A stretch of DNA of 64,000 bases from a virus (lineage: Duplodnaviria > Heunggongvirae > Uroviricota > Caudoviricetes): IMG/VR virus record IMGVR_UViG_3300008113_000307, positions 21,919 to 85,918 of that record, one strand, 5' to 3'. Of this stretch, positions 667 to 13,613 are shown in pieces. A program made the position numbers and the translations under genes. The notes under the pieces are model-generated. The model was not told the DNA's origin, ran no database searches, and saw only the letters and a program-made list of their open reading frames with translations. The stretch's first letter is position 1; each line of letters begins with the position of its first letter.

Positions 667-741
667 GGAGCGTTCGTCTATCGGTTAGGACATCAGGTTT
701 TCATCCTGAGAAGAGGGGTTCGACTCCCCTACGCTCTTCCA
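667..741 (+). tRNA. tRNA-Glu(TTC)
   Basis: Cloverleaf folded by hand: acceptor ggagcgt/acgctct, anticodon loop ttTTCat, T-loop ttcgact, encoded CCA. Confidence 0.65.
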
Positions 742-798
742 AGTTAGGGTGCTGTATACAGTTAAATGTGGTAGAACCGCAGCCGGAGATAGTATAAT

Positions 799-883
799 GG
801 AGAATCCGCCGCAATGGTGTGGCAGGGGACTGTAAATCCTCCGACTTCGGTCACGACTGGTTCGATCCCAGTATTCTCCACCA
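799..883 (+). tRNA. tRNA-Tyr(GTA), type II
   Basis: Acceptor ggagaat/attctcc, anticodon loop ctGTAaa, long variable arm, T-loop ttcgatc, CCA. Confidence 0.7.
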
Positions 884-1082
884 AGAACGTTCCAGCTAAT
901 CACTGGATAGTGTGACCCACACGATGAGAAGTGCAGTGATATGCACGGGTGGTAGTCTTCGAACCGAAAGGCCGCTAGCAATGCGACAACGGTCCCGGTC
1001 GGGAAGCGGGTGGAAGGTACGTGTGATGACTCCAAAGGTCTGATGTACTACAATTACCGCCGCGGGATGCAGAGCATTTTTG

Positions 1083-1240
1083 TTTTTATAGTTAAGCACC
1101 GATAAAGGTATCGTGTGGGGACGCTCACACTATTCGGGTCAAAGCGGCCGGCGACTGATCCTGAAACAACTGCTATCGGCTGTTGCACTCTTAGCGGAGT
1201 ACGCATAAATCAAGCATCTCTCGGTGCTTAACTATAAAAA
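1083..1240. repeat. Perfect 20-bp inverted repeat pair (1083-1102 and 1221-1240) enclosing 118 bp
   Basis: tttttatagttaagcaccga and its exact reverse complement; sits between tRNA-Tyr and tRNA-Asp. Confidence 0.6.
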
Positions 1241-1244
1241 TTTA

Positions 1245-1320
1245 GGTCTTAAAGTGTTCATGGACGCACGACGGCTTGTCACGCCGTAAGAGTGGGGATC
1301 GTTACCCCCTAAGACCGCCA
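1245..1320 (+). tRNA. tRNA-Asp(GTC), non-canonical T-loop ATCGTTA
   Basis: Acceptor ggtctta/taagacc, anticodon stem acggc/gccgt with loop ttGTCac, CCA; T-loop gggg-atcgtta-cccc. Confidence 0.55.
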
Positions 1321-1328
1321 AGTTTAAT

Positions 1329-1403
1329 GGGCTGTTAGTGATAATGGTAGCACGGGGCCTTTGCAAGGCTTAGGTGGGAGTTCGATCCTCCCACGGTCCA
1401 CCA
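1329..1403 (+). tRNA. tRNA-Ala(TGC)
   Basis: Acceptor gggctgt/acggtcc (G3:U70 present), anticodon loop ttTGCaa, T-loop ttcgatc, CCA. Confidence 0.65.
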
Positions 1404-1410
1404 AGTTTAT

Positions 1411-1490
1411 GTGCGTTTGGTCTAAATGTTAGGGCGTCATGACAGGGGGCTAATAACCTCAAGATGCGGGTTCGAATCCCGTAACGCACA
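1411..1490 (+). tRNA. tRNA, anticodon unresolved (possibly AAT)
   Basis: Acceptor gtgcgtt/aacgcac and canonical T-arm gcggg-ttcgaat-cccgt; central region has an extra gtcatgac hairpin; 3' end is ccg rather than CCA. Confidence 0.4.
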
Positions 1491-1496
1491 CCGTTT

Positions 1497-1573
1497 TGCA
1501 GCAATGGAGGGGTAGGGGGCATGTCCTCCGCATTCTAGATTCCCGCAGTGGTTCGAGTCCACTGGCTGCACCA
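1497..1573 (+). tRNA. tRNA-like element without a canonical anticodon arm
   Basis: Acceptor tgcagca/ggctgca 6/7, T-arm agtgg-ttcgagt-ccact, 5-bp ggagg/cctcc hairpin with 14-nt loop; contains ttCTAga but no flanking stem. Confidence 0.3.
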
Positions 1574-2030
1574 AGTTTTGCTTAGTTAGTATCAGAAAGT
1601 GTGTTTAATTGGGGCAACGAACTTTTACTCTGCCCGAGGAGTGGTATCGTAAAGATATATGGACCACCTTTACACAGTGCAATCAAGTTTTGTTAGTATA
1701 TGATAGAGTAATGTTCCAGGGTGTGGATTCCCTACTATCTTGTGGATAAGCCCGTTCGAATCGGGTCAATAGAGAACATTCTAACAGATCAAGTTTTGTA
1801 GCGTCGGCAAGAGAAAGGCACACTGGCAAGATTCTTCGAAGATCAAGTCAGTGTAGAGCAGAAGGGGGTTCGACTCCCCGCCATTCGGAAGAATGGTAGC
1901 TGTAGTGGTAGCGTCTGGTCGAGTATCCCAAGCGACATGTCCTGGAAAACCTCGACGTTAGGAAAGTCCGGCTCTGAACGTCTAAACACCAGCAATAAAC
2001 CTGAGGATGCTGGGCTACAAATTCAACATC

Positions 2031-2105
2031 GGGGGCAGCAGAGGGCTGCGGTGTTCGCTGGCAGCGATCATGTCTAGAGGGGTTCGATACCCCCGGTCTC
2101 CACCA
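2031..2105 (+). tRNA. tRNA-like element with Ala-type acceptor (G3:U70), no anticodon arm
   Basis: Acceptor gggggca/ggtctcc + A + CCA, T-arm gggg-ttcgata-cccc, two short hairpins in place of D/anticodon arms. Confidence 0.35.
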
Positions 2106-2110
2106 AATAC

Positions 2111-2185
2111 ATCGCATTGGACTTCAGGTGAGGTCATCACCCTTTCAAGGTGACTAGACGGGATCGTTACCCGTATGCGATACCA
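2111..2185 (+). tRNA. tRNA-Glu(TTC) variant, T-loop ATCGTTA, A1:U72
   Basis: Acceptor atcgcat/atgcgat, D-stem gact/ggtc, anticodon stem tcacc/ggtga with loop ctTTCaa, CCA. Confidence 0.55.
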
Positions 2186-2239
2186 TTCTTGAAAATAATC
2201 GAACCTAGCTAAATACTCTTATAAACATAAGGGTTCGAT

Positions 2240-2740
2240 ATGACAAAAGTTTGTCCAAAATGTAATTCAGAGCATCATAAAAATGGCACATTTTGCAGTA
2301 GAAAATGTGCCAACAGTAGAACATTCAGTGAAGAATCTAAGATTAAAAAATCTTTAGCAAGTAAAAAACATTATCAATCACTTAGTGAAGATGATAAAAA
2401 TAAAATTAACAAACGTCTCAAAGAGTTGTCCATTAACACTCAGGGGTATCGATTAGAACTTTTGCTCTCAAAAGAGTTTTCAACCTTAGCGTATCAGAGC
2501 AAGAGAAAGCGAGTTTTGATAGAACAAGAATTTAAATGCAAAAAATGCAATATAGATACTTGGTTTGGTAAACCATTGACTCTAGAATTGGAGCATATCG
2601 ATGGCAATCATCAAAATGATATTAGGTCAAATTTAATAGCATTGTGTCCAAACTGCCATAGTTTAACTGAAACATGGAGGGGACGCAATAGAAAGAACAA
2701 ATTACCCCCAGTAGCTCAAGGAGAGCAGGTCGTTTTATAA
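2240..2740 (+). CDS. HNH homing endonuclease
   Basis: N-terminal Cys-rich region and HNH motif EHIDGNHQND...NLIALCPNCHS; low GC; inserted among tRNA genes. Confidence 0.8.
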   Translation: MTKVCPKCNSEHHKNGTFCSRKCANSRTFSEESKIKKSLASKKHYQSLSEDDKNKINKRLKELSINTQGYRLELLLSKEFSTLAYQSKRKRVLIEQEFKCKKCNIDTWFGKPLTLELEHIDGNHQNDIRSNLIALCPNCHSLTETWRGRNRKNKLPPVAQGEQVVL

Positions 2741-2794
2741 GCGATTAATCTAGATAAGGTCCAGGATGAGGTTCGATTCCTCACTGGGGGACCA
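2705..2794 (+). tRNA. tRNA, long variable region, anticodon probably TAT
   Basis: Acceptor cccccag/ctggggg perfect, D-stem gctc/gagc, anticodon stem gtcgt/gcgat with loop ttTATaa, T-loop ttcgatt, CCA; 5' end overlaps last 36 nt of HNH gene. Confidence 0.4.
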
Positions 2795-3253
2795 AGAAAC
2801 TTCATCTGGGTTCAATTCCCGGCGGGGGTACCAAGTTAAACAAGTCAGGTGTGAACAAGAGGTTGATCACCAGCCCAGCTGCCAGGGACTACTATCGATC
2901 CACATCTCTGATCGGATGGAAACATCGCGACAACTGCTGATCACAGTTACTCATGTCAGTGGAAGGAAGTCTCGGCTTTGTGCCGACAGTACCTTTAAAC
3001 GCAAGGCAGTGCCTGACTTGTTTATCCAAAATCAGTTGACACTTATTCCAGAGTCAGCTACAATACACACATGCCAACTAATACTTGGTATTAGTGAACT
3101 CATTACGTGCACCATTCTGCGGGCTCTCAGGATTGCAAGATCCCGTATCCCAAGGTTGTCAGCGGGTAGACATGGAAGTCGCTGTGCTCCGAGCACAGAA
3201 AGACGCCGTGGTAGTGAGGTCACTAATACAAAGAATTTTGGCAACATTGACAG

Positions 3254-3282
3254 TTGACATGATTCACTGTTGATGTTACAAT
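3254..3282 (+). promoter_or_regulatory. sigma70-like promoter
   Basis: TTGACA-17-TACAAT; downstream region has no convincing ORF. Confidence 0.45.
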
Positions 3283-3791
3283 AAAGATTACAGGGCAGCG
3301 TAATGTCCTGTACAGTTGGGTTCGCCCAGCTGTGCAAAAGATAACTGTGGTGACACAGCCAAAGGAGGTATGCCTACATAACTCCGCCAGCAAAGGTCTG
3401 GTTACGCAAGCCTGCTCACTAGGGTGACCTAGCGATCACTGATAAGACCGGTGGTTGTAACAACGACGCTGGATGTTGTGGAAAGAACGTTTGCCGACAA
3501 GCCTGAGATTGTATCAAGGGGAACTTGGGTAGATGGAAAGTAACAGGTGGTGCTGACTTCACAACTAAACCAGTCCAGTTAGTTAGTATGAGAAAGGGTA
3601 GTGTACATGTCCGAGGGGTTGCACCCAAGGGCTAGTATGCAGTTTGAGTGGTAGGTGGGACTGTCAGCAATGGCGGGGTCACACTGATCGCAAAAGACGA
3701 CTGAGTAGCTCGCAAGGCCAAAGGTACGTGGTGTGTTGTATTGGGTAGAGCAAAACTTTATTCAGCAACTGTGTCAGCACATCGCAGTAGG

Positions 3792-3864
3792 TTCAGTTAT
3801 AGCACAATGGTAGTGCATCTCCCTGTTAAGGAGACGGCTGAAGGTTCAACTCCTTCTAACGTTT
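3792..3864 (+). tRNA. tRNA-Asn(GTT), acceptor pairing imperfect
   Basis: D-arm gcac-aatggta-gtgc, anticodon stem tctcc/ggaga with loop ctGTTaa, T-arm gaagg-ttcaact-ccttc. Confidence 0.4.
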
Positions 3865-4128
3865 AAAAAGCAAAGACTGACACGGCGGTATGTGAAAAGC
3901 ATCTAATACTTGACACGCAAGTGAATCAAGTCCAACGTAGCTCGCAAGGTGAAATTGGTTTATGCAGGAAGTTTCGTAAGGTGTTAGCGCACTTGAATGG
4001 CTAGGTGCTGTTAGGTAAGCATGTAATCTCAGTGCTCCACTATTCTAAAACACATTACCCCCGTAAAACGGTCTATACTAGTCACTAACCGAGTTGTTGT
4101 GTAGTGTGTTTCAGAATGGTAAATATAT

Positions 4129-4202
4129 CGCGGGTAGGGTGGCCACCACACCGGTCTCATAAGCCAGGTGCATCGGCAGTTCGAATCTGTCACCCGCATC
4201 CA
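4129..4202 (+). tRNA. tRNA-Met(CAT), initiator-like (C1-A72 mismatch)
   Basis: Acceptor cgcgggt/acccgca with 1-72 mismatch, anticodon loop ctCATaa, T-arm ggcag-ttcgaat-ctgtc, CCA. Confidence 0.5.
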
Positions 4203-4248
4203 GTTTTTTGGCGTGTTGTATAAATACAACATAAAATTTTTCACTTGG

Positions 4249-4277
4249 TTGACAACATCGACTAAGTACAGTACAAT
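4249..4277 (+). promoter_or_regulatory. sigma70-like promoter of a short transcription unit
   Basis: TTGACA-17-TACAAT; ATG 4285 and terminator at 4443-4475. Confidence 0.5.
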
Positions 4278-4442
4278 AGGACACATGATGAAACAACAAT
4301 TCTGTTCACAGCTGACCAAACCCACAATGCTCCAGACATCCGTCTGGTCGCACGGTTTTGGCCGCGTGAATAGTATTCCAGGCATCAGGGTCCACGAAGG
4401 TTGGGACGATTAACAAGTCGTAACACACACAAACTTCAAAGA

Positions 4443-4475
4443 CCCTGGAACTCAAAACTCCAGGGTTTTTCTTTT
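4443..4475 (+). terminator. Rho-independent terminator
   Basis: ccctgga-actcaaaact-tccaggg stem-loop followed by tttttctttt. Confidence 0.7.
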
Positions 4476-4685
4476 AGTGCAAGGCAACGCGAGCCGGCAA
4501 CACTCAAAACTGCAAATGAGGGCGTCCTCGGGGATGAGAAGCACTTCTTGTAGTGTGTGAAAAAACCGAGCGTATCGAAGAGGATTGTTCTCTTAACTGA
4601 GCATCCGCGGAGAGGAACTAATATTATGTTCGACTGACTCAACAGTCTTCTTCGATACCTGCATTGGCAACAGTGCAGTAAATTT

Positions 4686-4759
4686 ACCCGCATAGCTCAA
4701 AGGTAGAGCACACGCTTGATAAGCGTTAGACCAAGGATCGTTACCTTGTGTGGGTACCA
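4686..4759 (+). tRNA. tRNA-Ile(GAT), T-loop ATCGTTA
   Basis: Acceptor acccgca/tgtgggt, anticodon loop ttGATaa, CCA. Confidence 0.55.
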
Positions 4760-4765
4760 AATTTT

Positions 4766-4840
4766 ATCTCTCTGGTGTAATGGCAGCACATCGGCCTCCA
4801 AAGCCGTAAGGTCAGGGTTCGAGTCCTTGGGGGGATGCCA
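4766..4840 (+). tRNA. tRNA-Trp(CCA)
   Basis: Acceptor atctctc/gggggat (GU pairs), anticodon stem cggc/gccg with loop ctCCAaa, T-loop ttcgagt, G discriminator, CCA. Confidence 0.65.
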
Positions 4841-4848
4841 ATTTTTGT

Positions 4849-4922
4849 TCGGGAATTGTGTAATGGTAGCACAACAGACTTTGACTCTGTTAGCCTAGGT
4901 TCGATCCCTAGTTCCCGTGCCA
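4849..4922 (+). tRNA. tRNA-Gln(TTG)
   Basis: Anticodon stem acaga/tctgt with loop ctTTGac, T-arm ctagg-ttcgatc-cctag, G discriminator, CCA. Confidence 0.55.
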
Positions 4923-4932
4923 GTTTTTGTAT

Positions 4933-5011
4933 TCCACAGAACCCGAGCGTGGTGCATGGGCCGGACTGTTAATCCGTGGTTAGCTGGGATCGTCACCCAG
5001 ATGTGGAGCCA
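4933..5011 (+). tRNA. tRNA-Asn(GTT) variant, T-loop ATCGTCA
   Basis: Acceptor tccacag/atgtgga, anticodon loop ctGTTaa resembling E. coli tRNA-Asn, CCA. Confidence 0.5.
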
Positions 5012-5017
5012 AGTTTT

Positions 5018-5093
5018 CTCCGTATAGCGTAATCTGGTAGCGTTCCTGGTTTGGGGCCAGGAGGTTGGGGTTCAAATCCTCATATGGAGACCA
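5018..5093 (+). tRNA. tRNA-Pro(TGG)
   Basis: Acceptor ctccgta/tatggag, anticodon stem tcctgg/ccagga with loop ttTGGgg, T-loop ttcaaat, CCA. Confidence 0.6.
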
Positions 5094-5101
5094 AAAATTT
5101 G

Positions 5102-5130
5102 TTGACAGTAACCGCTGTTGACTATATAAT
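5102..5130 (+). promoter_or_regulatory. sigma70 consensus promoter
   Basis: TTGACA-17-TATAAT immediately upstream of tRNA-Asn. Confidence 0.6.
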
Positions 5131-5148
5131 ACAAACAACAAAGTATGT

Positions 5149-5223
5149 TCCTCAGTAGCTCAGCGGTAGAGCAATCGGCTGTTAACCGATCGGTCATTGG
5201 TTCGATCCCAGTCTGAGGAGCCA
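5149..5223 (+). tRNA. tRNA-Asn(GTT)
   Basis: Acceptor tcctcag/ctgagga perfect, anticodon loop ctGTTaa, near-identical in outline to E. coli tRNA-Asn, CCA. Confidence 0.8.
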
Positions 5224-5281
5224 AAATAAAAAGCGGATGACCTTTCTGCTCTTTTGTATAAATAAAACAAAGGAGCATGAT

Positions 5282-5671
5282 ATGAATGTGAATCAAAAAG
5301 GAAACATTGGCTTATTAAAAGTTATTAGTGATTTGTATAACAAAGGTTTTACAGCGTTTAAACCGTTTGATGACTACAATCCAGTGGATTTGATTGCTAT
5401 GGAATCGTCTGGAAAAACGTTTAGACTACAAGTAAAATATCGTAGTATGGATCCTAAAAGAAAAAGATATGAAATTTCTGCACAATCTATAGTTAATAGC
5501 AAAGCTGTGCCAATAGATAGAAATCTAATAGATTTTTGGGCAGTATATTTGGCAGATCTAGATCAAGTGGTCTATATGCCGGTTAGTATTATGGAGGGCA
5601 AAGGAGTCCACTATATTACTGAGAGACAATTAGGTGAGATGGATGAGAGGTTGAAATCGGCACCCTGCTAA
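5282..5671 (+). CDS. PD-(D/E)XK family nuclease (Hjc/Holliday-junction-resolvase-like)
   Basis: RBS aaaggag then ATG; motif GNIGLLKVISDLYNKGF...PVDLIAME...RLQVK matches the D-x-E-x-K restriction-endonuclease fold; low GC; 3' end overlaps tRNA-Ser. Confidence 0.5.
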   Translation: MNVNQKGNIGLLKVISDLYNKGFTAFKPFDDYNPVDLIAMESSGKTFRLQVKYRSMDPKRKRYEISAQSIVNSKAVPIDRNLIDFWAVYLADLDQVVYMPVSIMEGKGVHYITERQLGEMDERLKSAPC

Positions 5672-5724
5672 GGTGTTTTCTTGGGAAACCAGGGACGTGG
5701 GTTCGAATCCCACTTTCACCACCA
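5633..5724 (+). tRNA. tRNA-Ser(GCT), type II
   Basis: Acceptor ggtgaga/tttcacc, anticodon loop ctGCTaa, long variable arm cttgg-gaaa-ccagg, T-loop ttcgaat, CCA. Confidence 0.6.
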
Positions 5725-5753
5725 ATTTAGAGTTTAGCAAACTCAAACAATTC

Positions 5754-5827
5754 GCCCTGTTAGTTAAGTGGCATAACGCCTGTTTTGTAATCAGGAGTTG
5801 GCAGTTCGATTCTGTCACGGGGCACCA
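5754..5827 (+). tRNA. tRNA-Thr(TGT)
   Basis: Acceptor gccctgt/acggggc, D-arm gtta-agtggca-taac, anticodon loop ttTGTaa, CCA. Confidence 0.55.
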
Positions 5828-5835
5828 ATTAAAAT

Positions 5836-5911
5836 GCGGGTGTAGCTCAGTTGGTAGAGCACTTCCTTGCCAAGGAAGATGTCAGGAGTTCGAGCCTCCT
5901 TACCCGCTCCA
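5836..5911 (+). tRNA. tRNA-Gly(GCC)
   Basis: Acceptor gcgggtg/tacccgc, anticodon stem cttcc/ggaag with loop ttGCCaa, T-loop ttcgagc, CCA. Confidence 0.7.
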
Positions 5912-6009
5912 ATTTTTGTAGAGATGCAAGTGCCAAACTGAGCGCATGCTCACCGGTGCATCCCGGCTATGCCTAGATATTGGCTCTGGGCTTACTACAT
6001 TTTTCTTTT

Positions 6010-6083
6010 GCTCTTGTAGTTAAGTGGTATAACGAATCCATGGTAAGGATTAATCGACAGTTCGATTCTGTACTTGAGCACCA
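6010..6083 (+). tRNA. tRNA-Thr(GGT), acceptor has 2 mismatches
   Basis: D-arm gtta-agtggta-taac, anticodon stem aatcc/ggatt with loop atGGTaa, CCA. Confidence 0.45.
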
Positions 6084-6137
6084 CCCAACCGGCCCATACC
6101 ATCCCTTGACGAGCAGGTCCCTGGGCTTTGTTTTCGC

Positions 6138-6213
6138 GCCGCGGTAGCTCATCAGGTAGAGCAGCAGACTGAAAATCTGTGTGTGGCTGGTTCGAGTCCA
6201 GCTCGTGGCACCA
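6138..6213 (+). tRNA. tRNA-Phe(GAA)
   Basis: Acceptor gccgcgg/tcgtggc, anticodon stem gcaga/tctgt with loop ctGAAaa, T-loop ttcgagt, CCA. Confidence 0.7.
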
Positions 6214-6219
6214 TCTAAT

Positions 6220-6297
6220 GCGTCTTTAGCTCAGTTGGAATAGAGCACTGGTTTACGAAACCGGGGGTCGGGAGTTCGAGTCTCTCAGGACGCACCA
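6220..6297 (+). tRNA. tRNA-Arg(ACG)
   Basis: Acceptor gcgtctt/aggacgc, anticodon stem ctggt/accgg with loop ttACGaa, CCA. Confidence 0.7.
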
Positions 6298-6302
6298 CAC
6301 AG

Positions 6303-6331
6303 TTGACAACAATTGCAGATTGTTGTATAAT
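6303..6331 (+). promoter_or_regulatory. sigma70 consensus promoter
   Basis: TTGACA-17-TATAAT upstream of the second tRNA sub-cluster. Confidence 0.6.
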
Positions 6332-6443
6332 TAAGACTTAAACAAAAAGGTTACACTATGAAACGCTCAGGCAAACCCTAGTGTCATCCTGGTCCCCCGT
6401 ATGGTCCTGGATGGCACGTAAAAGACAATCTATTACGATCCAT

Positions 6444-6518
6444 CCATGCTAAACTTTGCTGGCGAAGTACCCGGCTCTTACCCGGACAAACTGAGTTCGA
6501 TTCTCAGAGCATGGACCA
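6444..6518 (+). tRNA. tRNA-Lys(CTT)
   Basis: Acceptor ccatgct/agcatgg perfect, D-stem actt/aagt, anticodon stem ccgg/ccgg with loop ctCTTac, T-loop ttcgatt, CCA. Confidence 0.5.
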
Positions 6519-6521
6519 TAT

Positions 6522-6596
6522 GGGGGCATAACTTAACGGCTAAAGTAGTCGGCTTTTAACCGACCTATCAGAGTTCAATTCTCTGTGCCCCTACCA
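6522..6596 (+). tRNA. tRNA-Lys(TTT)
   Basis: Acceptor gggggca/tgcccct, anticodon stem gtcgg/ccgac with loop ctTTTaa, T-loop ttcaatt, CCA. Confidence 0.7.
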
Positions 6597-6668
6597 TATG
6601 CAAACACATTAACAGCGTCGTGCCGGTCGCCGGACTTAGGTTGAATTCCTAATAGTGTGTTTACATAT

Positions 6669-6743
6669 GGTGTCGTTAGTTTAGTGGCAAAACCGCGGAT
6701 TGTGATTCCGCTATCATGAGTTCAATTCTCATACGATACCCCA
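6669..6743 (+). tRNA. tRNA-His(GTG) with extra 5' G(-1)
   Basis: Extra 5' g, acceptor gtgtcgt/acgatac, anticodon stem gcgga/tccgc with loop ttGTGat, C discriminator, CCA. Confidence 0.7.
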
Positions 6744-6789
6744 CATACCAAAATTACATAAGTTAGACTTAATCTACATAATTAATAAT

Positions 6790-7833
6790 ATGACAAATCA
6801 GTATAGTGACGTTCTCAATACTCATAAAATCATGTTCAACGATTCTATTAGAAATAATTTTTACAAAAAAATTTTAACTGGTTGCGTTGAGAACAAGCAC
6901 TGCGTAGAAGTGGGGTTTGGTACTGGCATTTTATCTGTTATTGCATGTGATCTTGGTGCAAAACATGTGATTGCATATGAGCACAATCTCGACACATACA
7001 ACTTTGGTCAGGAAATGATCAAAACTTTAAACTTGACCGACAGAATTTTATTGCTTAATGAAACATTTGAACCTTCCAAACTATCACAACATCATAAGAT
7101 AGATGTAATGTTTTCTGAAACAGTTGATAATGCGTTATGGGGGGAAGGTTGGTATCTCAATACATTTATTGATGACCCAAACATAAACATACTGCCCAAC
7201 AAATATTTTTTCGAATCTTTTTGTATTGAAGTCGAAGATAATTATGCTCAAGGGCTACTAATGGGTCCTGAACACTTGTGTAATCCAGGCATACCCATCA
7301 ATCATCAATTTGTTGATTTTATTAATCAACATCTCACATCTGGTGGTAGTAAAGATACGGTTGTATCTAAAATTGACGAGTATTACACTAATAAAATAGT
7401 TGACATAAGTTTGGCCAATCAAGGTACTTTTTGGGGATGGCACACCCAACTAATGGAAGCGTTTGATATTAGACAGAAAGTTGCCGATTTTCAATATGCA
7501 TTAGACCTTAACAAAAAAAACATAATTTTAACAGACAAATATAAAACAACTATAAAAAAAATAAACCCAGATTTATCGTCGATAGAATTTCAACTAAAAA
7601 TGGAAAATCCCGATTCTAATTATCTAATATTTTTTAGAGTAGGATTAGAATCCGGCAACGAAAAATTTTATTTAGATAGCGGACATTTTGGACCTTTCAG
7701 TTCAGCGTTTTTACTGAGAAGTTCTTCTAAAAATAAAATAGTAAATCTTTCACATAATTTGTTCGATGGCGGAATAACTGCTGAATACAATAAAAAAATT
7801 ATCAAAAAAGTTGCTTCGGATAATTGGGCATGA
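6790..7833 (+). CDS. Class I SAM-dependent methyltransferase, PRMT-like
   Basis: NDSIRNNFYKKIL, motif I VEVGFGTGILS, and IDVMFSETVDNALWGEGW resemble type I protein arginine methyltransferases; strongly AT-rich. Confidence 0.55.
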   Translation: MTNQYSDVLNTHKIMFNDSIRNNFYKKILTGCVENKHCVEVGFGTGILSVIACDLGAKHVIAYEHNLDTYNFGQEMIKTLNLTDRILLLNETFEPSKLSQHHKIDVMFSETVDNALWGEGWYLNTFIDDPNINILPNKYFFESFCIEVEDNYAQGLLMGPEHLCNPGIPINHQFVDFINQHLTSGGSKDTVVSKIDEYYTNKIVDISLANQGTFWGWHTQLMEAFDIRQKVADFQYALDLNKKNIILTDKYKTTIKKINPDLSSIEFQLKMENPDSNYLIFFRVGLESGNEKFYLDSGHFGPFSSAFLLRSSSKNKIVNLSHNLFDGGITAEYNKKIIKKVASDNWA

Positions 7834-7872
7834 CCTATTGCAACAATTAGGTTGGCCTTTCAACATAGACAT

Positions 7873-7947
7873 GGAAGTATAGCACAGCGGTAGTGCAGCA
7901 CCTTCATACGGTGTTGGTCAGTAGTTCGAATCTACTTACTTCCACCA
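7873..7947 (+). tRNA. tRNA-Met(CAT) (elongator Met or Ile2 precursor)
   Basis: Acceptor ggaagta/tacttcc perfect, anticodon stem gcacc/ggtgt with loop ttCATac, T-loop ttcgaat, CCA. Confidence 0.65.
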
Positions 7948-7948
7948 T

Positions 7949-8023
7949 GGGCCTTTGGTGAAATGGATATCATGCTGGTCTTCGAAACCAGCGGTGGGAG
8001 TTCGATCCTCTCAGGGCCCGCCA
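7949..8023 (+). tRNA. tRNA-Arg(TCG)
   Basis: Acceptor gggcctt/agggccc, anticodon stem ctggt/accag with loop ctTCGaa, CCA. Confidence 0.6.
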
Positions 8024-8201
8024 GTTATAACGATGCAATGAATCGCCTGGCTGATTCAGCGTCAACAAAATAGAACATGCGCAGGCTGTCGTCGTAAATA
8101 TCATTGACAATGATGTAGCCTGTGTTGTCGTTGCTCATGCTGAGATGGATTTGAATTCCGTCTGCGGTGAGAGTGTCGTAGATGTACATAAGTTTATTTA
8201 A

Positions 8202-8275
8202 GCGGGTAAGCTCAAGGTGAGACGTCAGCCTTCCAAGCTGCACTGAGTGGGGTTCGACTCCCCCTACCCGCTCCA
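8202..8275 (+). tRNA. tRNA-Gly(TCC)
   Basis: Acceptor gcgggta/tacccgc, anticodon stem cagc/gctg with loop ctTCCaa, T-loop ttcgact, CCA. Confidence 0.65.
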
Positions 8276-8281
8276 GTTTTT

Positions 8282-8355
8282 CTCGGTATGGTGAAATGGT
8301 ATCACTCGACGTTTGGGACGTTGGAGCGTAGGTTCGATTCCTGCTACCGAGACCA
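8282..8355 (+). tRNA. tRNA-Pro(TGG), second copy
   Basis: Acceptor ctcggta/taccgag perfect, D-stem gtga/tcac, anticodon stem cgacg/cgttg with loop ttTGGga, CCA. Confidence 0.55.
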
Positions 8356-8362
8356 TGACAAT

Positions 8363-8439
8363 GCACAGGTGGCGGAGTGGCCCAACGCAAGGGATTGCAA
8401 ATCCCTAAAACCGTGAGTTCAAATCTCACCCTGTGCTCC
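8363..8439 (+). tRNA. tRNA-Cys(GCA)
   Basis: Acceptor gcacagg/cctgtgc perfect, anticodon stem aggga/tccct with loop ttGCAaa, T-loop ttcaaat, CCA. Confidence 0.7.
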
Positions 8440-8445
8440 AGATAC

Positions 8446-8537
8446 GGAAAGTAATGCAGCGGGGATGGTCCTGCGACTGGCCTTGAAAACCAGGTTCTCT
8501 TAACAGGGATGGGGTTCGACTCCTCTGCTTTCCGCCA
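8446..8537 (+). tRNA. tRNA-Ser(TGA), type II
   Basis: Acceptor ggaaagt/gctttcc, anticodon loop ctTGAaa (reads UCA), long variable arm, T-loop ttcgact, CCA. Confidence 0.6.
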
Positions 8538-8557
8538 TAAGTACAGCAAAGGAGATC

Positions 8558-8728
8558 ATGATGACAAGATCAGCAATTTTTCAAAACAAAATTACTCGGG
8601 AACGCCTGATCTGCGACAACGTGGATCTTGTGCGTTGGTTTGATGGTGCGGCCTTTTTGTCAGTTCGGCGAGAAGGAACTGAACGACGTTTCCTAATTCG
8701 TCGCGATGCACTGCAAGAAATAGTATAA
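8558..8728 (+). CDS. Hypothetical small protein (56 aa)
   Basis: Strong RBS aaaggag 6 nt upstream of ATG; between tRNA-Ser and tRNA-Val. Confidence 0.5.
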   Translation: MMTRSAIFQNKITRERLICDNVDLVRWFDGAAFLSVRREGTERRFLIRRDALQEIV

Positions 8729-8737
8729 TTGACACAT

Positions 8738-8812
8738 GCCTGGTTAGCTCAGGGGGAGAGCGCTTCGTTTACACCGAAGATGTCCGCGGTTCGAAACCGT
8801 GACCAGGTACCA
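8738..8812 (+). tRNA. tRNA-Val(TAC)
   Basis: Acceptor gcctggt/accaggt, anticodon stem cttcg/cgaag with loop ttTACac, T-loop ttcgaaa, CCA. Confidence 0.65.
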
Positions 8813-8818
8813 AACATA

Positions 8819-8893
8819 GTCTCTGTAGTTCAATGGATAGAACAAGTTCCTCCTAAGAATTAGATATCAGTTCAATTCTGGTCAGAGACGCCA
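8819..8893 (+). tRNA. tRNA-Arg(CCT)
   Basis: Acceptor gtctctg/cagagac perfect, anticodon stem agttc/gaatt with loop ctCCTaa, T-loop ttcaatt, CCA. Confidence 0.6.
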
Positions 8894-8933
8894 ATCTTGC
8901 GATAGTGGTGGCATCAATAATTTTATTTTTACT

Positions 8934-9782
8934 GTGATTAATTATTTTACCGATAATCTCCTATTTGCATATTATCCACAGGGCGCTGGGGGGAAATTTT
9001 TACTTAACTGCATTGGATTAAGTGATCATTCCGTATTACAATCTAGAGCACTAGTGGTAAAACAACTTGAAAATAATTTTAATCAAGACCAAAAATTTAA
9101 TTGGTTACTGGAAAAAATTAAATATGCTAAAAAAAGAAAACACTGGAATGATCTGGACCTTGGTTGTACTGAATTGTTTGGACAGGAAGATCAACCATAT
9201 TATCCAGAAATAGACATACTATCTAACTCACATTTAATTTTTTCCAAAGTAGCACACAGTTATAATGTGTTGCTAGACGCAACTAACACTTGGCCCAATG
9301 CAAAAATTTTGCAACTAGAAAATTGTCATAACTTTATTTCAGCATATAGATCTCATACTTTGTCCAATCCAGCAGCCCCCGAACCTGATATTTTGTCATT
9401 AGTTTGGAAAAATATTAGAGATCAATCATGGCCAGTTAATCATCCCACTACGCTAGAAGAATACAATCAATTAGATATTAAAATTCGTAATGAAGATCAA
9501 TACATGCATAATCATTCAATTTTACAAGAGATTATTAAATGCAAACAACTGAATTATCGGCTATTGCAAAATATCAACGTTATTAAATGGGACTGTGATT
9601 GGTTTTTTGATTGTGATGTTTGTGTTGATCAATTAAGTACAGTATATCAAAAACTTTGTTTACCTGACTTCGATCGAAAAAAAATTAAAGCCTATTTTTT
9701 AGCCTGGATAGACTGTCTAGATACTATAGACAAAGATCAAAAGAAAAATCTCAGAAGCAATAAAAGCCAAATGGGAAGATAG
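8934..9782 (+). CDS. Hypothetical protein (282 aa), AT-rich
   Basis: Long low-GC ORF embedded in tRNA array; GTG start; no family recognised. Confidence 0.5.
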   Translation: MINYFTDNLLFAYYPQGAGGKFLLNCIGLSDHSVLQSRALVVKQLENNFNQDQKFNWLLEKIKYAKKRKHWNDLDLGCTELFGQEDQPYYPEIDILSNSHLIFSKVAHSYNVLLDATNTWPNAKILQLENCHNFISAYRSHTLSNPAAPEPDILSLVWKNIRDQSWPVNHPTTLEEYNQLDIKIRNEDQYMHNHSILQEIIKCKQLNYRLLQNINVIKWDCDWFFDCDVCVDQLSTVYQKLCLPDFDRKKIKAYFLAWIDCLDTIDKDQKKNLRSNKSQMGR

Positions 9783-9788
9783 AAAAAT

Positions 9789-9873
9789 GCGGATGTGGCG
9801 TAATTGGTAGCCGCACCAGATTTAGGTTCTGGCGTTGAAAGGCGTGGGGGTTCGAGTCCCTTCATCCGCACCA
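9789..9873 (+). tRNA. tRNA-Leu(TAG), type II
   Basis: Acceptor gcggatg/catccgc perfect, anticodon stem ccaga/tctgg with loop ttTAGgt (reads CUA), long variable arm, CCA. Confidence 0.65.
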
Positions 9874-9921
9874 AGACTCTCCCTGACACACGGAGTATAA
9901 TAGGACAAGTAGTGTGTTTCC

Positions 9922-9995
9922 AGGTCATTAGCTCAAAGGTAGAGCGGTGCATTGACATTGCACATACAGCGGATCGTTACCGTTATGACCTACCA
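9922..9995 (+). tRNA. tRNA-Val(GAC), T-loop ATCGTTA
   Basis: Acceptor aggtcat/atgacct perfect, D-arm gctc-aaaggta-gagc, anticodon stem gtgca/tgcac with loop ttGACat, CCA. Confidence 0.55.
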
Positions 9996-10003
9996 AACAT
10001 CAT

Positions 10004-10080
10004 GCCTTTGTAGCCGAATTGGTATAGGCACTGCGTTGAGGTCGCAGGTTCTGCTGGTTCGAGTCCAGTCAAAGGCACCA
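10004..10080 (+). tRNA. tRNA with Leu anticodon GAG but short (type I) variable arm
   Basis: Acceptor gcctttg/caaaggc perfect, anticodon stem ctgcg/cgcag with loop ttGAGgt, 5-nt variable region, T-loop ttcgagt, CCA. Confidence 0.5.
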
Positions 10081-10085
10081 TTTTT

Positions 10086-10157
10086 AGCGTCACTCTGGCT
10101 GATCTAACTGGGGTCCAATCCCGGTAGTCAAAGGTTCGATTCCTGCAGGCGCTGCCA
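10086..10157 (+). tRNA. Short tRNA-like element with Trp anticodon CCA and reduced D-arm
   Basis: Acceptor 6/7, anticodon stem ctggg/cccgg with loop gtCCAat, T-loop ttcgatt, CCA; only 69 nt before CCA. Confidence 0.35.
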
Positions 10158-10335
10158 TTTTTGCAAACACAAAACCGTGCAGGGGCAATCCCCCGGCTGG
10201 CCCTGTGCAGTGATGCATAACCAGCGGATCAGGTGTCGGGGTGAGAGGCCCCGGGTCGTTTCTGGTGGAAACAGCATCTAGTAACGATGCTGACGACAGC
10301 AGTGCCCTGCACGAAACCAGGTGTTTGCGTTTTTA

Positions 10336-10364
10336 TCGACCAAAAATCAAGAACACAGTATAAT
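10336..10364 (+). promoter_or_regulatory. sigma70-like promoter
   Basis: TCGACC-17-TATAAT, ATG 7 nt downstream at 10371. Confidence 0.5.
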
Positions 10365-10370
10365 AGAAAC

Positions 10371-10601
10371 ATGTATAAATTAATAAACAAAGCAGGCACA
10401 GAACTAGATGGATTTGAGACCTTGGACTCTGCTATGCAAGCCGCAAAGGCAGTGGGCTTCTTTGTGACCATTGCAGGACCGGACTTTGAAGTGTGTGGTC
10501 GGTTTGGAGTAGACACTGTTCGAAACGGGCTGTGCCCAGATGGTGTTAAATACGATTGGAACAAAGCTAGTCGCATTGGCGCAACTAAACGAAAAAGATA
10601 A
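10371..10601 (+). CDS. Hypothetical small protein (76 aa)
   Basis: First ATG after promoter; ends 2 nt before next gene. Confidence 0.5.
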
Positions 10602-10603
10602 AA

Positions 10604-11008
10604 ATGCTGGATAGATTGTTTACAGGTCTTGAAGATATACAAACAAAAACTTGCGGAATGTGTTTGAAAACTCTACCGCTAACTATGTTCGGTAACGACG
10701 GCGGCGCAAAATATCTTAGATATGAGTGCAAGACATGTGCAAAAGCTCAAAGCAAATTGTTAAAAACAATTAAAAAATCTGCACCAGCAATTCCTAAAGA
10801 TTACAAGTGTCCAATTTGCAAGCGTAATGAGCAAGAAGCTAAAGGACATAATCCCAACAAAAAAGGAATTTGGTGTGCCGACCACAATCATGCATCGGGT
10901 AAATTTAGAGGTTGGCTATGTCACAAATGCAATTTAGGATTAGGCAATATGAACGATGACATAGATAGATTAGAAGCTGCTATCAAATATTTAAAGGAGA
11001 AACCATGA
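10604..11008 (+). CDS. Recombination endonuclease VII family protein
   Basis: Cys clusters plus [25 protein letters not shown]...LEAAIKYL match the T4 endo VII signature. Confidence 0.75.
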
Positions 11009-11676
11009 AACGTGTGATTGAAATTCGTGCTGCCGAAGGCGGCGAAGACTCTAAGTTGTTTGTGCAAGATCTTGCACAGGCCTACATCAAGTTTGCTCAC
11101 AGCAAAGGCTGAGCTGCCCGCCTGACAAATCAGATGGCCGGCGAGCAGCATGTGTTGGTCGAAGGCGGTGATTTATCAGGCTTGACGAACGAAGCAGGAG
11201 GGCATCGTATTCAACGAGTGCCGCCTACCGAACGCAAAGGCCGTGTGCATACCAGCACAGTGACAGTGGCCATAGTTGACCCCCGAACCATTGCTACCAC
11301 CATTCGAGAGAGTGATCTCTATGTAGAGTGGTATTCAGGTACAGGTGCTGGAGGGCAGTATCGCAACAAGCATCAAAACTCATGTAGAATCACACATGTG
11401 CCCACCGGCATCACTGCCAAGTCTGAGTGCCGAAGCCGAGCCAACAGTTTGGCTGAAGCTACCCAGGCCATACAGCAACGAGTTGACCACGTGCTACAAA
11501 GTCGCTATAATAGTGCAGTGGCACAGGATCGACGTTCACAAGTGGGCACTGGCCAGCGAGGAGACAAAATACGCACCTATAGATTTCAAGACGATGTCAC
11601 ACAAGACCATGTGACTGGACAACGTGCCAGCACACGACGAGTGTTACAGGGAAACTTTGATCTCTTGTGGAACTGA
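11005..11676 (+). CDS. Truncated class I release factor (RF1-like, domains 2-4) interrupted by an in-frame TGA at 11110-11112
   Basis: ATGA overlap with upstream gene; [34 protein letters not shown] aligns with RF1 VRAGTGGDEAALFAGDL..ARRW; downstream [12 protein letters not shown] (PxT motif), SGTGAGGQ and [13 protein letters not shown] match RF1 domains 3-4. Confidence 0.8.
11113..11149 (+). promoter_or_regulatory. Stable hairpin directly 3' of the in-frame TGA (candidate recoding/readthrough stimulator)
   Basis: gctgcccgcc pairs with ggcgagcagc (9 of 10 bp) around a 17-nt loop, starting at the first nucleotide after the stop codon. Confidence 0.55.
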
Positions 11677-11810
11677 TGCGTAAATAGAAACAGGTGGCGT
11701 CCAGCCTGGACCTCTACTGCACTGGTCTGCAGACATGTCAAACTAGAACGGGTGAGTTGAGGAGCCGCAGGTGCCAAAGGCCTGCACTGGATTCGGTAAC
11801 CAGTATTTTT

Positions 11811-11888
11811 GCCCCTGTGGACAAATTGGCAAAGTCGCTTCTCTCAAAAGGAAGAGTGTTCTCAGTTCGACTCTGAGCAGGGGTACCA
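11811..11888 (+). tRNA. Solitary type-I tRNA with anticodon CAA (Leu UUG codon), A73 discriminator
   Basis: Acceptor gcccctg/caggggt, D-stem gac/gtc with 11-nt loop, anticodon stem cttct/ggaag with loop ctCAAaa, T-loop ttcgact, CCA; sits 130 nt after the release-factor gene. Confidence 0.55.
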
Positions 11889-11905: not shown

Positions 11906-12376
11906 ATGAAGCAAATCAATCTAGACGAAGTCACACAGTTTATCCAGGCACAGACACCAGAAACCAAGATCTATCTTGGTTGCGACTCGGAACGCCTGCG
12001 AGTGGACGGTGACTGGTACGCGGATTACGTGCTGGCCATTGTGGTTCACATCAACGGCAACAATGGCTGCAAACTGTTTGGCGAAGTGCATCGGGAACGT
12101 GTATGGGATGCCAAGCCCAGCAAGCCCAGCATGAGGCTCATGACCGAAGTGTACAAGGTTTCCGAACTGTACTTGAAGTTGGCCGAAGTGCTGGAAGGCA
12201 GGCATGTGGAAGTGCATTTGGACATCAACCCCAACGAAATGCACGGCAGCTCATGCGTGATCAGCCAGGCCATAGGCTACATCAAGGGCACCTGCAACGT
12301 GGTGCCATTTGTGAAACCTGAAGCTTTTGCTGCCAGTTACGCCGCAGACCGATTCAAAGGCCTGCGAGTAGCATAA
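11906..12376 (+). CDS. YkuK/DUF458-like RNase H-fold protein
   Basis: IYLGCDSE, VLAIVVH, EVHLDINPNE, GYIKG..VKPEAFAASYAADRF follow the conserved blocks of the B. subtilis YkuK family. Confidence 0.55.
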   Translation: MKQINLDEVTQFIQAQTPETKIYLGCDSERLRVDGDWYADYVLAIVVHINGNNGCKLFGEVHRERVWDAKPSKPSMRLMTEVYKVSELYLKLAEVLEGRHVEVHLDINPNEMHGSSCVISQAIGYIKGTCNVVPFVKPEAFAASYAADRFKGLRVA

Positions 12377-12379
12377 CAA

Positions 12380-12404
12380 AAACCCGCTGAGGCGGGTTTT
12401 TTTG
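12380..12404 (+). terminator. Rho-independent terminator
   Basis: aacccgc-tga-ggcgggtt stem followed by T7. Confidence 0.7.
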
Positions 12405-12473
12405 TGGCTGCTAATAGGCAATGCCAAACAGTACCATTGGAAAATACAATAGCTAAAACCTATGGAAACCGCT

Positions 12474-12502
12474 TGACCTGTAGGTATTTTATGCTATATA
12501 AT
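12474..12502 (+). promoter_or_regulatory. sigma70-like promoter with extended -10
   Basis: TTGACC-17-TGC-TATATAAT upstream of ahpC. Confidence 0.55.
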
Positions 12503-12567
12503 ACTTTATGACATCAGCACAGACTGTGCTGACTCGATCCAATCAACATTTATACATAGGAGAAATA

Positions 12568-13107
12568 ATGAAAACAGTTGGCGATAAATTGACTAAATTT
12601 GCAGTGACCGGTGTCCGGCCCGGGCAACCTGAAGACGCATTCTTCACAATCACAGACGAGAGCTTTGCAGGCAAGTGGAAAGTGATTGTGTATTACCCCA
12701 AGGACTTTACCTTTGTATGCCCAACAGAAATCGTTGCATACGATAAATTGACTGGTGACTTTGCTGATCGTGATGCAGTGTTGCTGACCGGTTCGACAGA
12801 CAATGAGTTCTGCAAGGTTGCTTGGCAAACTGCTCATGAAGATCTCAAGAAGATCACCCACACTCAGTTTGCTGATACACAGCGTGGTGAGTTGAGCTTG
12901 ATCGAACAACTGGGCGTGTTCTACGCTCCAGCAGGTGCTGCCCTTCGTGCCACATTCATTGTTGACCCCAACAACGAGATCCAGCACGTGACTGTCAACA
13001 ACTTGAACGTGGGTCGTAGCCCAGAAGAAACTTTGCGTGTACTTGACGCACTGCAAACTGGTGAACTGTGTGCATGTAACCGTACTGTGGGCGGGGAGAC
13101 ACTGTAA
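12568..13107 (+). CDS. ahpC: Peroxiredoxin AhpC (typical 2-Cys)
   Basis: RBS aggagaaataATG; peroxidatic-Cys motif FTFVCPTEI and C-terminal GELCACN resolving-Cys region. Confidence 0.85.
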   Translation: MKTVGDKLTKFAVTGVRPGQPEDAFFTITDESFAGKWKVIVYYPKDFTFVCPTEIVAYDKLTGDFADRDAVLLTGSTDNEFCKVAWQTAHEDLKKITHTQFADTQRGELSLIEQLGVFYAPAGAALRATFIVDPNNEIQHVTVNNLNVGRSPEETLRVLDALQTGELCACNRTVGGETL

Positions 13108-13613
13108 TGGCATTCATCGACGCAGTTAAAGGTGCGTTGCCAGAATACGCAAAGGACACCAAGTTAAATCTTGACGCTGTTCTTTTGCGTAGTACTCTAG
13201 ATGCGGATGTGGCCATGGGGTGTGCTGTGGCTGCATTGGCTGCAACCGGCAACGGCAAAGTACTCAGCATCATGTTGGCCGATGCGCCTGTGCATGCAGA
13301 ACCAGCAATGACAGCAGCCAGCATCATGGCCCAAAACAACGTTTGGTATCCTTACGTTGAAATGGCAGATGATCCGGCACTGAAAGGCCTGCCTGCTCAG
13401 TTGCGTATGAATGCTATTGCGTCACACGGCGGAACTACCAAGGCCAACTTTGAAGCGTTCTCGTTGGCAGCAAGTATTGTGGGCAAGTGTCACTTCTGTG
13501 TCAAAGCACACTATGATACTCTAAAGGCAGAAGGCTACACTGTAGAGAACTTGCGTGATATCGGACGTATTGCCAGTGTCATGAATGCTGTGGCCAAAGT
13601 GCTCAACAGTTAA
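13107..13613 (+). CDS. ahpD: AhpD-like alkylhydroperoxidase (carboxymuconolactone decarboxylase family)
   Basis: ATG overlaps ahpC stop (TAATG); CxxC-type motif KCHFCVKAH; size 168 aa. Confidence 0.65.
   Translation: MAFIDAVKGALPEYAKDTKLNLDAVLLRSTLDADVAMGCAVAALAATGNGKVLSIMLADAPVHAEPAMTAASIMAQNNVWYPYVEMADDPALKGLPAQLRMNAIASHGGTTKANFEAFSLAASIVGKCHFCVKAHYDTLKAEGYTVENLRDIGRIASVMNAVAKVLNS

Follow-up and report, generated by a model that had tools for sequence, protein, structure and literature searches.

An invariant in-frame UGA at a tryptophan codon of RF1-type release factor genes in phages and bacterial replicons: a probable signal for programmed read-through

The 64,000-nucleotide (nt) stretch of DNA analysed here, from a tailed phage (Caudoviricetes; IMG/VR record IMGVR_UViG_3300008113_000307, positions 21,919 to 85,918; 'the window' throughout), carries a short gene for a release factor (RF) of the RF1 type without domain 1, here called mini-RF1. 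Codon 36 of this gene, at a position where RF1 has tryptophan, is an in-frame UGA. The same stop occurs in all related genes collected from phages, metagenomes and bacterial replicons, lies within a single frame that is under purifying selection, and is followed after 7 nt by a conserved stem-loop; it is very likely a programmed recoding signal. As far as comparison of sequences can tell, mini-RF1 is probably a functional domain-1-less RF1-type factor made by structure-stimulated read-through of the UGA, probably as tryptophan. The elements concerned are as follows (window positions).

10994-10999, + strand: Shine-Dalgarno sequence AAGGAG, 5 nt ahead of ATG 11005
11005-11676, + strand: mini-RF1 gene (RF1-type release factor, no domain 1), identified from sequence, frame, domain matches and thousands of homologues
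11110-11112, + strand: in-frame UGA, codon 36, at the RF1 Trp position, context AAA GGC UGA G
11113-11119, + strand: 7-nt spacer between UGA and stem-loop, from folding analyses
11120-11181, + strand: conserved extended stem-loop of about 62 nt (codons 39-59), supported by covariation, candidate read-through stimulator
11113-11150, + strand: local hairpin GCUGC.CGCC / GGCG.GCAGC, 9 bp (-16.9 kcal/mol, z -2.86)
11221-11229, + strand: codons of the PPT tripeptide (PxT type), residues 73-75, invariant in alignment A1
11350-11358, + strand: codons of the GGQ catalytic motif, residues 116-118, invariant in alignment A1

From ATG 11005, which overlaps the stop of the preceding Endonuclease VII-like open reading frame (ORF) as ATGA, the frame runs for 223 codons with a single interruption, TGA 11110-11112 after 35 codons; beyond it the same frame is free of stops until the terminal TGA at 11674-11676, giving 223 sense positions if codon 36 is decoded. 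A preliminary description, made from the letters of the window, had reported an in-frame UGA within one continuous release factor frame at a conserved Trp of RF1, and both points are borne out: in the alignment to Thermotoga maritima RF1 (1RQ0/2FVO), 'fahsKGWaarl' of mini-RF1 faces 'yaerKGWnlev', placing the stop exactly on the RF1 Trp.

Translated with Trp in place of the stop, the gene gives 223 residues with Pfam matches to PCRF (82.4 bits; confined to profile positions 103-194 of 194, the last 92) and RF-1 (59.9 bits). Among NCBIfam profiles the RF1 model prfA scores best (TIGR00019, 183.5 bits, positions 115-342 of 361), against 104.9 bits for prfB (RF2) and 39.6 bits for prfH. The prfA score is below the equivalog cut-off of 423.25 and the four-domain architecture of RF1 is not present; from the partial coverage of the model it follows that domain 1 is absent, and in the T. 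maritima alignment mini-RF1 begins at the equivalent of RF1 residue ~87-112. Judged by these matches, mini-RF1 is an RF1-derived paralogue without domain 1, not prfA itself. It retains QRVPPT...HTS, of the PxT type, in a segment that aligns with QRVPVTESGGRIHTS of T. maritima RF1 and includes the flanking Q...HT residues, and should therefore read UAA and UAG only, not UGA; the absence of domain 1, the PPT tripeptide and the GGQ motif had all been read correctly in the preliminary description. No close relative was found among deposited GenBank phage genomes. A jumbo phage is indicated by PHROG matches of window proteins to baseplate and virion proteins and by the IMG/VR contigs of 240-354 kb on which relatives lie.

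A regular-expression census of complete related genes (n = 132, 117 distinct) covered phage contigs up to 354 kb, metagenomes and bacterial genomes. The internal stop is TGA in 132/132 and never TGG, TAA or TAG, although the sequences share phylogeny and such a count does not represent independent events; five genes checked apart from the census (L188, L189 and those of Variovorax, Bosea and Rhizobium) also have TGA, for a total of about 137. TGA occupies the Trp codon in 46/46 full-length matches on viral contigs, in 80/80 metagenome loci (the best 80) and in ten bacterial-genome loci of 45-57% identity, from Thalassospira, Jiella, Gemmobacter, Rhodovibrio, Sphingomonas/Sphingobium, a Pseudobdellovibrionaceae and other metagenome-assembled genomes (MAGs). 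No uninterrupted member was found at identities of at least 45%, and database proteins that appear full-length, with W at this position, are gene calls in genetic code 4 (TGA = Trp) over the same TGA. This comparison shows the UGA to be fixed by selection across the mini-RF1 family. The gene had been presented as a phage gene, which it is, but it also resides on chromosomes and megaplasmids of cultured Alpha- and Betaproteobacteria; replicons of cultured strains with the TGA include Variovorax sp. SRS16 'plasmid 2', Bosea sp. RAC05 pBSY19_1 and Rhizobium leguminosarum pRlX5.

The context of the stop is also constrained. The preceding codon is GGC, GGT, GGA or GGG in 131/132 genes (GGY in 126/132), and the following base is A in 94, G in 31, C in 7 and T in none, against T after 49/142 (35%) of the ordinary terminal TGAs in the same phages. 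U at +4 is the strongest termination context in E. coli; the recoding UGA, where +4 is never U, sits in a weak one. Terminal stops of the census genes are TAA (122) or TGA (8), with no TAG. The window gene itself ends in TGA (11674-11676), whereas 122/130 relatives end in TAA and none in TAG, and if UGA is leaky in the host a short C-terminal extension of its product is possible.

In Variovorax sp. SRS16 plasmid 2 (L190, NZ_LR594667.1, 61520-62224), RefSeq splits the gene into two coding sequences (CDSs), a 'hypothetical protein' (WP_162570722.1) and a 'peptide chain release factor-like protein' (WP_162571144.1); the surroundings of the gene on this 801-kb 'plasmid', with tRNA genes and an HNH endonuclease, are phage-like. 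The Bosea locus is annotated solely with a hypothetical protein on the opposite strand. Four huge phages of 595-735 kb, LR756502.1 (L073), LR745206.1 (L074), LR756504.1 (L075) and LR756511.1 (L076), encode domain-1-less RF1-like genes of about 35-38% identity. In three of the four, one or two in-frame TGAs are found at other nearby positions, while the gene of LR756511.1 is uninterrupted; 40 kb of LR756502.1 fits the standard code (coding density 0.941 vs 0.945). In-frame UGAs in phage mini-RF1 genes may have more than one origin.

The second line of evidence is RNA structure. The most stable 45-nt windows of mini-RF1 genes start at the TGA, and for the 51-nt window from the TGA the mean z-score against synonymous-codon randomisation is -2.18, with 96% of 48 sequences below -1, while the remaining 28 windows of the gene give z between +0.67 and -1.04. 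The preliminary description had placed a hairpin directly after the UGA. That hairpin exists, with 9 bp (11113-11150), but the conserved element is the 62-nt stem-loop that begins 7 nt downstream: in a 90-nt context the window sequence folds into the stem-loop at 11120-11181 (-37.2 kcal/mol, z -3.51), and the local hairpin shares its 5' arm and competes with it for the CGCC arm. Local folds comparable to the hairpin occur in relatives in varying registers, whereas the dominant fold of the family in longer context spans +10 to +71 relative to the U of UGA, with the same architecture in about 50/57 sequences folded individually. The UGA and 7-nt spacer are less paired in native sequences than in synonymous randomisations.

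Covariation was assessed by pair counting in a gapless alignment of 57 distinct sequences with 500 shuffles, the basal 10 pairs being tested separately in the same way; RNAalifold gave no consensus on the full alignment owing to a small number of divergent rows, and the structure was taken from the per-sequence folds. Of the cells for the 18 pairs of the lower stem-loop, 86.5% are paired, where slid registers give 30-48%, and 12/18 pairs have changes on both sides. Compensatory cells number 89, compared with 29.6 +/- 6.4 in shuffles, a value reached in 0/500. Some compensations alter amino acids on both arms (e.g. GCC/GGC to GUU/AAC in L151), and synonymous divergence (dS) in the stem-loop segment is 0.71 vs 1.8 and 4.9 in its flanks. 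Divergent members L157 (z -4.5), L159 (-3.4), L162 (-2.7) and L188 (-2.4) have unrelated hairpins at the same place.

Codons 1-35 are under purifying selection (ratio of nonsynonymous to synonymous rates, dN/dS, 0.10) and are therefore translated as protein; downstream of the UGA dN/dS is 0.03-0.40, and in the segments flanking the stem-loop (codons 1-35 and 61-95) it is 0.03-0.10. In relatives the parts before and after the UGA always share one frame, so that homologues consisting of two separate genes without in-frame continuity, which would have spoken against recoding, were looked for and not seen. Together with the invariant TGA, these observations strongly support the proposal of the preliminary description that the UGA is read through or recoded as Trp.

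A sister clade carries a different device a few codons away. In a gene from a Hahella MAG the Trp position is TGG, and the frame changes by +1 six codons later at TCT CTT TAG CCC. A search with the repaired Hahella protein gave six more distinct members (59-70% identity; seven loci in total), the predicted proteins of which all start with the +1-frame peptide KTGNxTxFSP. The DNA reads ...AAC TGG AAA xxx xxx xxx CTT TAG CCx in every case, and the RF domains continue in +1 to a terminal TAA. The loci are:

L165: 5001-5670
L181: 4907-5570
L183: 361-1039 (= L182)
L184: 4907-5582
L185: ~567-1230
L186: 1-663
L187: 189-870

By its sequence, CTT TAG CC is the shift heptamer of prfB (CUU UGA C) bearing an RF1-specific stop. 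No Shine-Dalgarno-like stimulator is visible upstream of the sister-clade sites. The window gene does not have a prfB-type +1 site, frame 0 continuing after GGC UGA G. A 2025 survey (PMC12421855) reports that none of 8,164 prfB frameshift sites has TAG and that prfA shows neither a programmed frameshift nor other recoding. That two different devices lie no more than about seven codons apart suggests that the early in-frame stop serves as a regulatory sensor of termination efficiency. One sister-clade locus has RtcR and an integrase as neighbours; at another these are umuDC and a restriction-modification gene.

Two further features of the window enter the proposed mechanism:

667-11888, + strand: array of 31-37 tRNA genes in which the mini-RF1 gene is embedded, as it is in relatives
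4766-4840, + strand: phage tRNA-Trp(CCA), the most plausible, though putative, near-cognate decoder of the UGA

A full-length factor would require the ribosome to decode UGA-36 as an amino acid and to continue in the same frame. With this UGA in the A site, RF2 would compete with near-cognate Trp-tRNA(CCA) of host or phage origin, the phage contributing a copy of its own, and the stem-loop would lie at the mRNA entry channel and, like the 3' structures of viral read-through sites, favour read-through over termination; known recoding stimulators have this geometry too, with the basal helix at the mRNA entrance, 7 nt downstream. Near-cognate read-through inserting Trp is the outcome we favour, with somewhat less assurance than recoding as such, because the codon aligns to the Trp of RF1 and the sister clade has TGG there. 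A suppressor identity of the Hirsh type for the phage tRNA-Trp was considered and rejected: the U11-A24 pair is present but not diagnostic, since ordinary tRNA-Trp species, that of B. subtilis among them, have it as well.

The yield of full-length factor would be set by the sufficiency of RF2 and not by the factor itself, because only RF2 terminates at UGA and the PxT-type product should read only UAA and UAG. Direct autoregulation, which the preliminary description had entertained, is accordingly not what the gene layout offers: an RF1-type factor does not read UGA, and a circuit of this kind would report RF2 activity. The layout of true autoregulation as in prfB (CUU UAG C, +1) is confined to the sister clade. 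As to purpose, it may be speculated that when RF2 is limiting in a phage in which 34-46% of genes end with UGA, additional RF1-type activity would take over termination at UAA and free RF2 for UGA; that the UGA serves to sense RF2 is a tentative suggestion, about which doubt somewhat outweighs confidence. A slightly stronger case, close to evenly balanced, can be made for a termination-homeostasis circuit shared by jumbo phages and accessory replicons of proteobacteria, in most of which RF2 would be sensed through UGA/tRNA-Trp competition with a boost from the 3' stem-loop, the sister clade using CUU UAG C instead. An alternative purpose, and the least to be expected of such a device, would be a low, fixed dose of a potentially toxic factor encoded in a heavily transcribed tRNA operon.

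The most serious competitor to near-cognate read-through, itself unlikely, is decoding of the UGA by a dedicated trans-acting factor, either a suppressor tRNA encoded outside the regions seen or the tRNA-like RNA at 10081-10290, whose expression would switch on production of the release factor. Suppressor tRNAs do accompany RF genes in recoded phages (Borges et al. preprint, 10.1101/2021.08.26.457843), the regions examined are part of each genome, and a conserved tRNA-like RNA without a D arm, with CCA in its anticodon-like loop in 4/5 relatives, lies 0.7-0.9 kb upstream of mini-RF1. This element is not scored as a tRNA, however, and its loop is not conserved in L077. A search of the window with ARAGORN (normal and relaxed thresholds, introns allowed) and Rfam gave no tRNA with a stop-reading anticodon, and tca, cta and tta anticodons are likewise missing from the 791 tRNAs in 1.05 Mb around related genes (~10 kb around each relative). 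The sequence flanking the mini-RF1 gene contains no cryptic tRNA and is not unusually stable. Nor does any other window gene need UGA to be decoded: no other convincing TGA-interrupted gene was found within the window, and the one same-frame ORF pair considered (25642-25854 / 25867-27006) was rejected, being two neighbouring genes, a small ORF and then a MoxR-like ATPase that has a start of its own. Bacterial chromosomal and plasmid members have no neighbouring tRNAs, and there host factors alone must therefore suffice.

That the UGA and stem-loop form a bacterial selenocysteine insertion sequence (SECIS), with selenocysteine (Sec) at codon 36, is very unlikely, even though bacterial Sec insertion is defined by just this arrangement, a conserved stem-loop close behind a UGA. 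Sec normally replaces Cys, whereas the homologous residue is Trp in RF1 and encoded by TGG in the sister clade, and Cys was never seen. The apical loop of bacterial SECIS elements lies 16-37 nt from the UGA; here the apical part, which would bind SelB, is the least conserved and is about 38-46 nt away. In the window there is no Rfam SECIS match at E <= 1, and the sole tRNA-Sec-like match (Rfam, 8446-8533) has anticodon UGA and was rejected as a tRNA-Ser. Several divergent members also have no significant hairpin.

Scarcely more room is left, and perhaps a little less, for true termination at the UGA, with a 35-aa peptide and/or a re-initiated C-terminal protein as products (a split gene or leader peptide). 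The window has an in-frame ATG (11134) after the UGA, gene callers annotate proteins of 172-184 aa, and RefSeq has two CDSs in Variovorax. The starts chosen by gene callers nevertheless vary from genome to genome, with no conserved restart codon or Shine-Dalgarno sequence after the UGA among relatives, and in every case the two parts share one frame, with TGA as the stop and the Trp codon as its exact place. A product without residues 1-43 would, moreover, lose the RAAEGGED helix tip, which RF1 uses for stop-codon recognition, as known from RF1 structures.

The last two explanations carry negligible weight. Assembly or sequencing errors and decaying pseudogenes usually show themselves by a lone in-frame stop, but the same TGA in about 137 independent assemblies, diverging to 45% identity with no other stops or frameshifts, is not a misread TGG, and dN/dS of 0.03-0.10 in codons 1-35 and 61-95, with covariation in the adjacent RNA structure, is not that of a decaying gene. 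Use of code 4 by phage or host, as assumed by automatic gene callers on many short contigs, is at odds with a coding density that does not change when TGA is read as sense (0.857 vs 0.856), with TGA ending 38/82 window ORFs and 142/422 (34%; TAA 54%) in window and relatives together, with ten related loci of 17-21 kb that also fit the standard code, with other conserved Trp codons of the family that are not TGA, and with the lack of a tRNA(UCA) among the 791 neighbouring tRNAs. In this respect, and in finding the other genes of the window intact, the preliminary description was right.

Several points weigh against read-through as put forward here. Scans covered 64 kb of a genome of probably 250-350 kb and ~10 kb around each relative, and a UGA-reading tRNA or other trans-acting factor could be encoded elsewhere. 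The sequences are kin, and 132/132 does not count independent events. The stem-loop is plain in the main phage clade and in some other members (L157, L159, L162 and L188), but no significant one is found in the divergent bacterial members L160, L161, L163, L168, L169 and L189; the stem-loop therefore would help without being universal or indispensable, unlike the UGA. We infer the protein product, the efficiency of read-through and the inserted residue from the genes, and the RF2-sensing purpose by logic only. We know of no established precedent for structure-stimulated, non-selenocysteine read-through in bacteria.

The surroundings of mini-RF1 have further features. The non-coding element of about 200 nt at 10081-10290, between tRNA-Leu(gag) and the ORFs preceding mini-RF1, is conserved (counterparts L077:547-756, L071:~2466-2670, L079:~40-250 and L080:~1270-1480). 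Its 5' part is tRNA-like, with an acceptor-like stem, a long anticodon-like arm (CCA in the loop in 4/5 sequences) and a GGTTCGATTCC T-loop plus GCCA, with no D arm, and is followed by covarying hairpins; RNAalifold gives changes on both sides in 13/50 pairs, and there is no Rfam match at E <= 1. A GOLLD-like RNA match at 3728-4035 (102.9 bits and E 1e-26, short of the gathering score of 150) surrounds a tRNA-like sequence with anticodon GUU (3796-3860) that was not called by ARAGORN. Positions 1-105 (to ~175) hold the 3' part of a permuted two-piece transfer-messenger RNA (tmRNA) gene cut by the window edge (tmRNA_permuted 48.3 bits, beta_tmRNA 36.6 bits), so that the phage tmRNA adjoins the tRNA array. 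Missed or mis-typed by default ARAGORN were an intron-containing or odd tRNA (1411-1492) and tRNA-Gly(UCC) (8202-8272); a long-arm tRNA-Ser (UGA anticodon) at 8446-8537 scores as tRNA-Sec-like.

Beside mini-RF1, at 11906-13613, are an RNase H-like gene, a peroxiredoxin (AhpC/TSA) and an AhpD-like CMD protein, and in Jiella sp. (L160:4364-6480) the neighbours of mini-RF1 are likewise RNase H and Redoxin, perhaps by chance, perhaps because the neighbourhood is conserved. A PrmC-like RF methyltransferase was considered at 6790-7833 and rejected, the signal there being weak and generic for S-adenosylmethionine (SAM)-dependent methyltransferases. Further away on the minus strand, 45618-53201 contains a cluster of several radical-SAM-domain proteins, adjoined by a Nol-like carbamoyltransferase (43009-44493); the cluster is probably a module for nucleotide or RNA modification or for auxiliary metabolism.

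A search of the literature found neither an in-frame UGA nor a UAG frameshift described for RF1-type genes, and the mini-RF1 UGA is very probably the first recoding signal seen in such a gene. If true, the proposed mechanism would be without earlier example in two ways: as programmed read-through stimulated by structure and not serving selenocysteine, in bacteria or DNA phages, and as control of an RF1-type factor by recoding. To our knowledge, control of bacterial release factor dosage by recoding is known only for RF2 (prfB); two recoding devices at the same spot of an RF1-type family would extend this principle and reveal cross-talk between RF1 and RF2. Jumbo phages with large tRNA arrays would then tune termination as well as decoding. 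As a read-through signal of natural origin, from bacteria or phages, the site (UGA, 7-nt spacer and covarying stem-loop) could be of use in synthetic biology and in studying UGA leakiness, and the cultured carriers (Variovorax, Gemmobacter, Bosea, Rhizobium, Thalassospira, Rhodovibrio) open the question to experiment. For annotation, gene callers and RefSeq split, truncate or assign the wrong code to mini-RF1 genes, which affects genetic-code prediction for short viral contigs.

Among the nearest known systems, none of which matches, the RF1 genes of TGA-recoded (code 4) phages such as the Jade phages (10.1101/2021.08.26.457843) resemble mini-RF1 in combining a phage RF1, UGA as Trp and phage tRNAs. 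Those phages, however, recode many late genes, carry a UGA-suppressor tRNA and have their own RF1 gene in standard code, whereas the genome considered here uses the standard code and has such a UGA in the RF1-type gene alone. PrfH (RF-H, paired with RtcB) likewise lacks domain 1 and is found on mobile or accessory DNA, but mini-RF1 reaches only 39.6 bits against the TIGR03072 cut-off of 166.65, over the GGQ domain only, compared with 183.5 bits for prfA, and still has the PxT recognition loop; in a scan of five ORFs between 10287 and 13613, no match to RtcB was found. Bacterial Sec insertion likewise uses a UGA with a conserved stem-loop behind it, both within the coding sequence. At mini-RF1, however, homologues have Trp and not Cys at this position, the apical loop varies and is far from the UGA, and the window has neither Sec machinery nor tRNA-Sec nor an Rfam SECIS match. 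In plants, eRF1 is a termination factor controlled via stop read-through in its own mRNA together with nonsense-mediated decay (PMC5397192); eRF1 reads all three stops and is autoregulatory, while mini-RF1 should not read its gating UGA.

A further parallel is viral read-through (Qbeta A1, with UGA read as Trp; gag-pol of murine leukaemia virus; alphaviruses and others with extended 3' stem-loops, PMC3159437), which shares a leaky stop, mostly UGA, a stable 3' structure some 7-8 nt away whose conservation exceeds what the protein demands, and a near-cognate tRNA that inserts an amino acid. Mini-RF1 differs in occurring in DNA phages and bacterial replicons, in that its stop replaces a conserved internal residue only 35 codons into the gene, and in that only the read-through product would be expected to function, not a pair of short and extended proteins. 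The prfB +1 frameshift (CUU UGA C) has in common with mini-RF1 an early in-frame stop that ties the yield of a class-I release factor to stop recognition, and the seven loci of the sister clade have the same heptamer geometry (CUU UAG C) with +1 continuation, differing from prfB in the lack of a visible upstream Shine-Dalgarno-like stimulator. The window gene, by contrast, would use read-through with no frameshift, and its stop, RF2-specific in an RF1-type gene, would report the activity of another factor and not its own.

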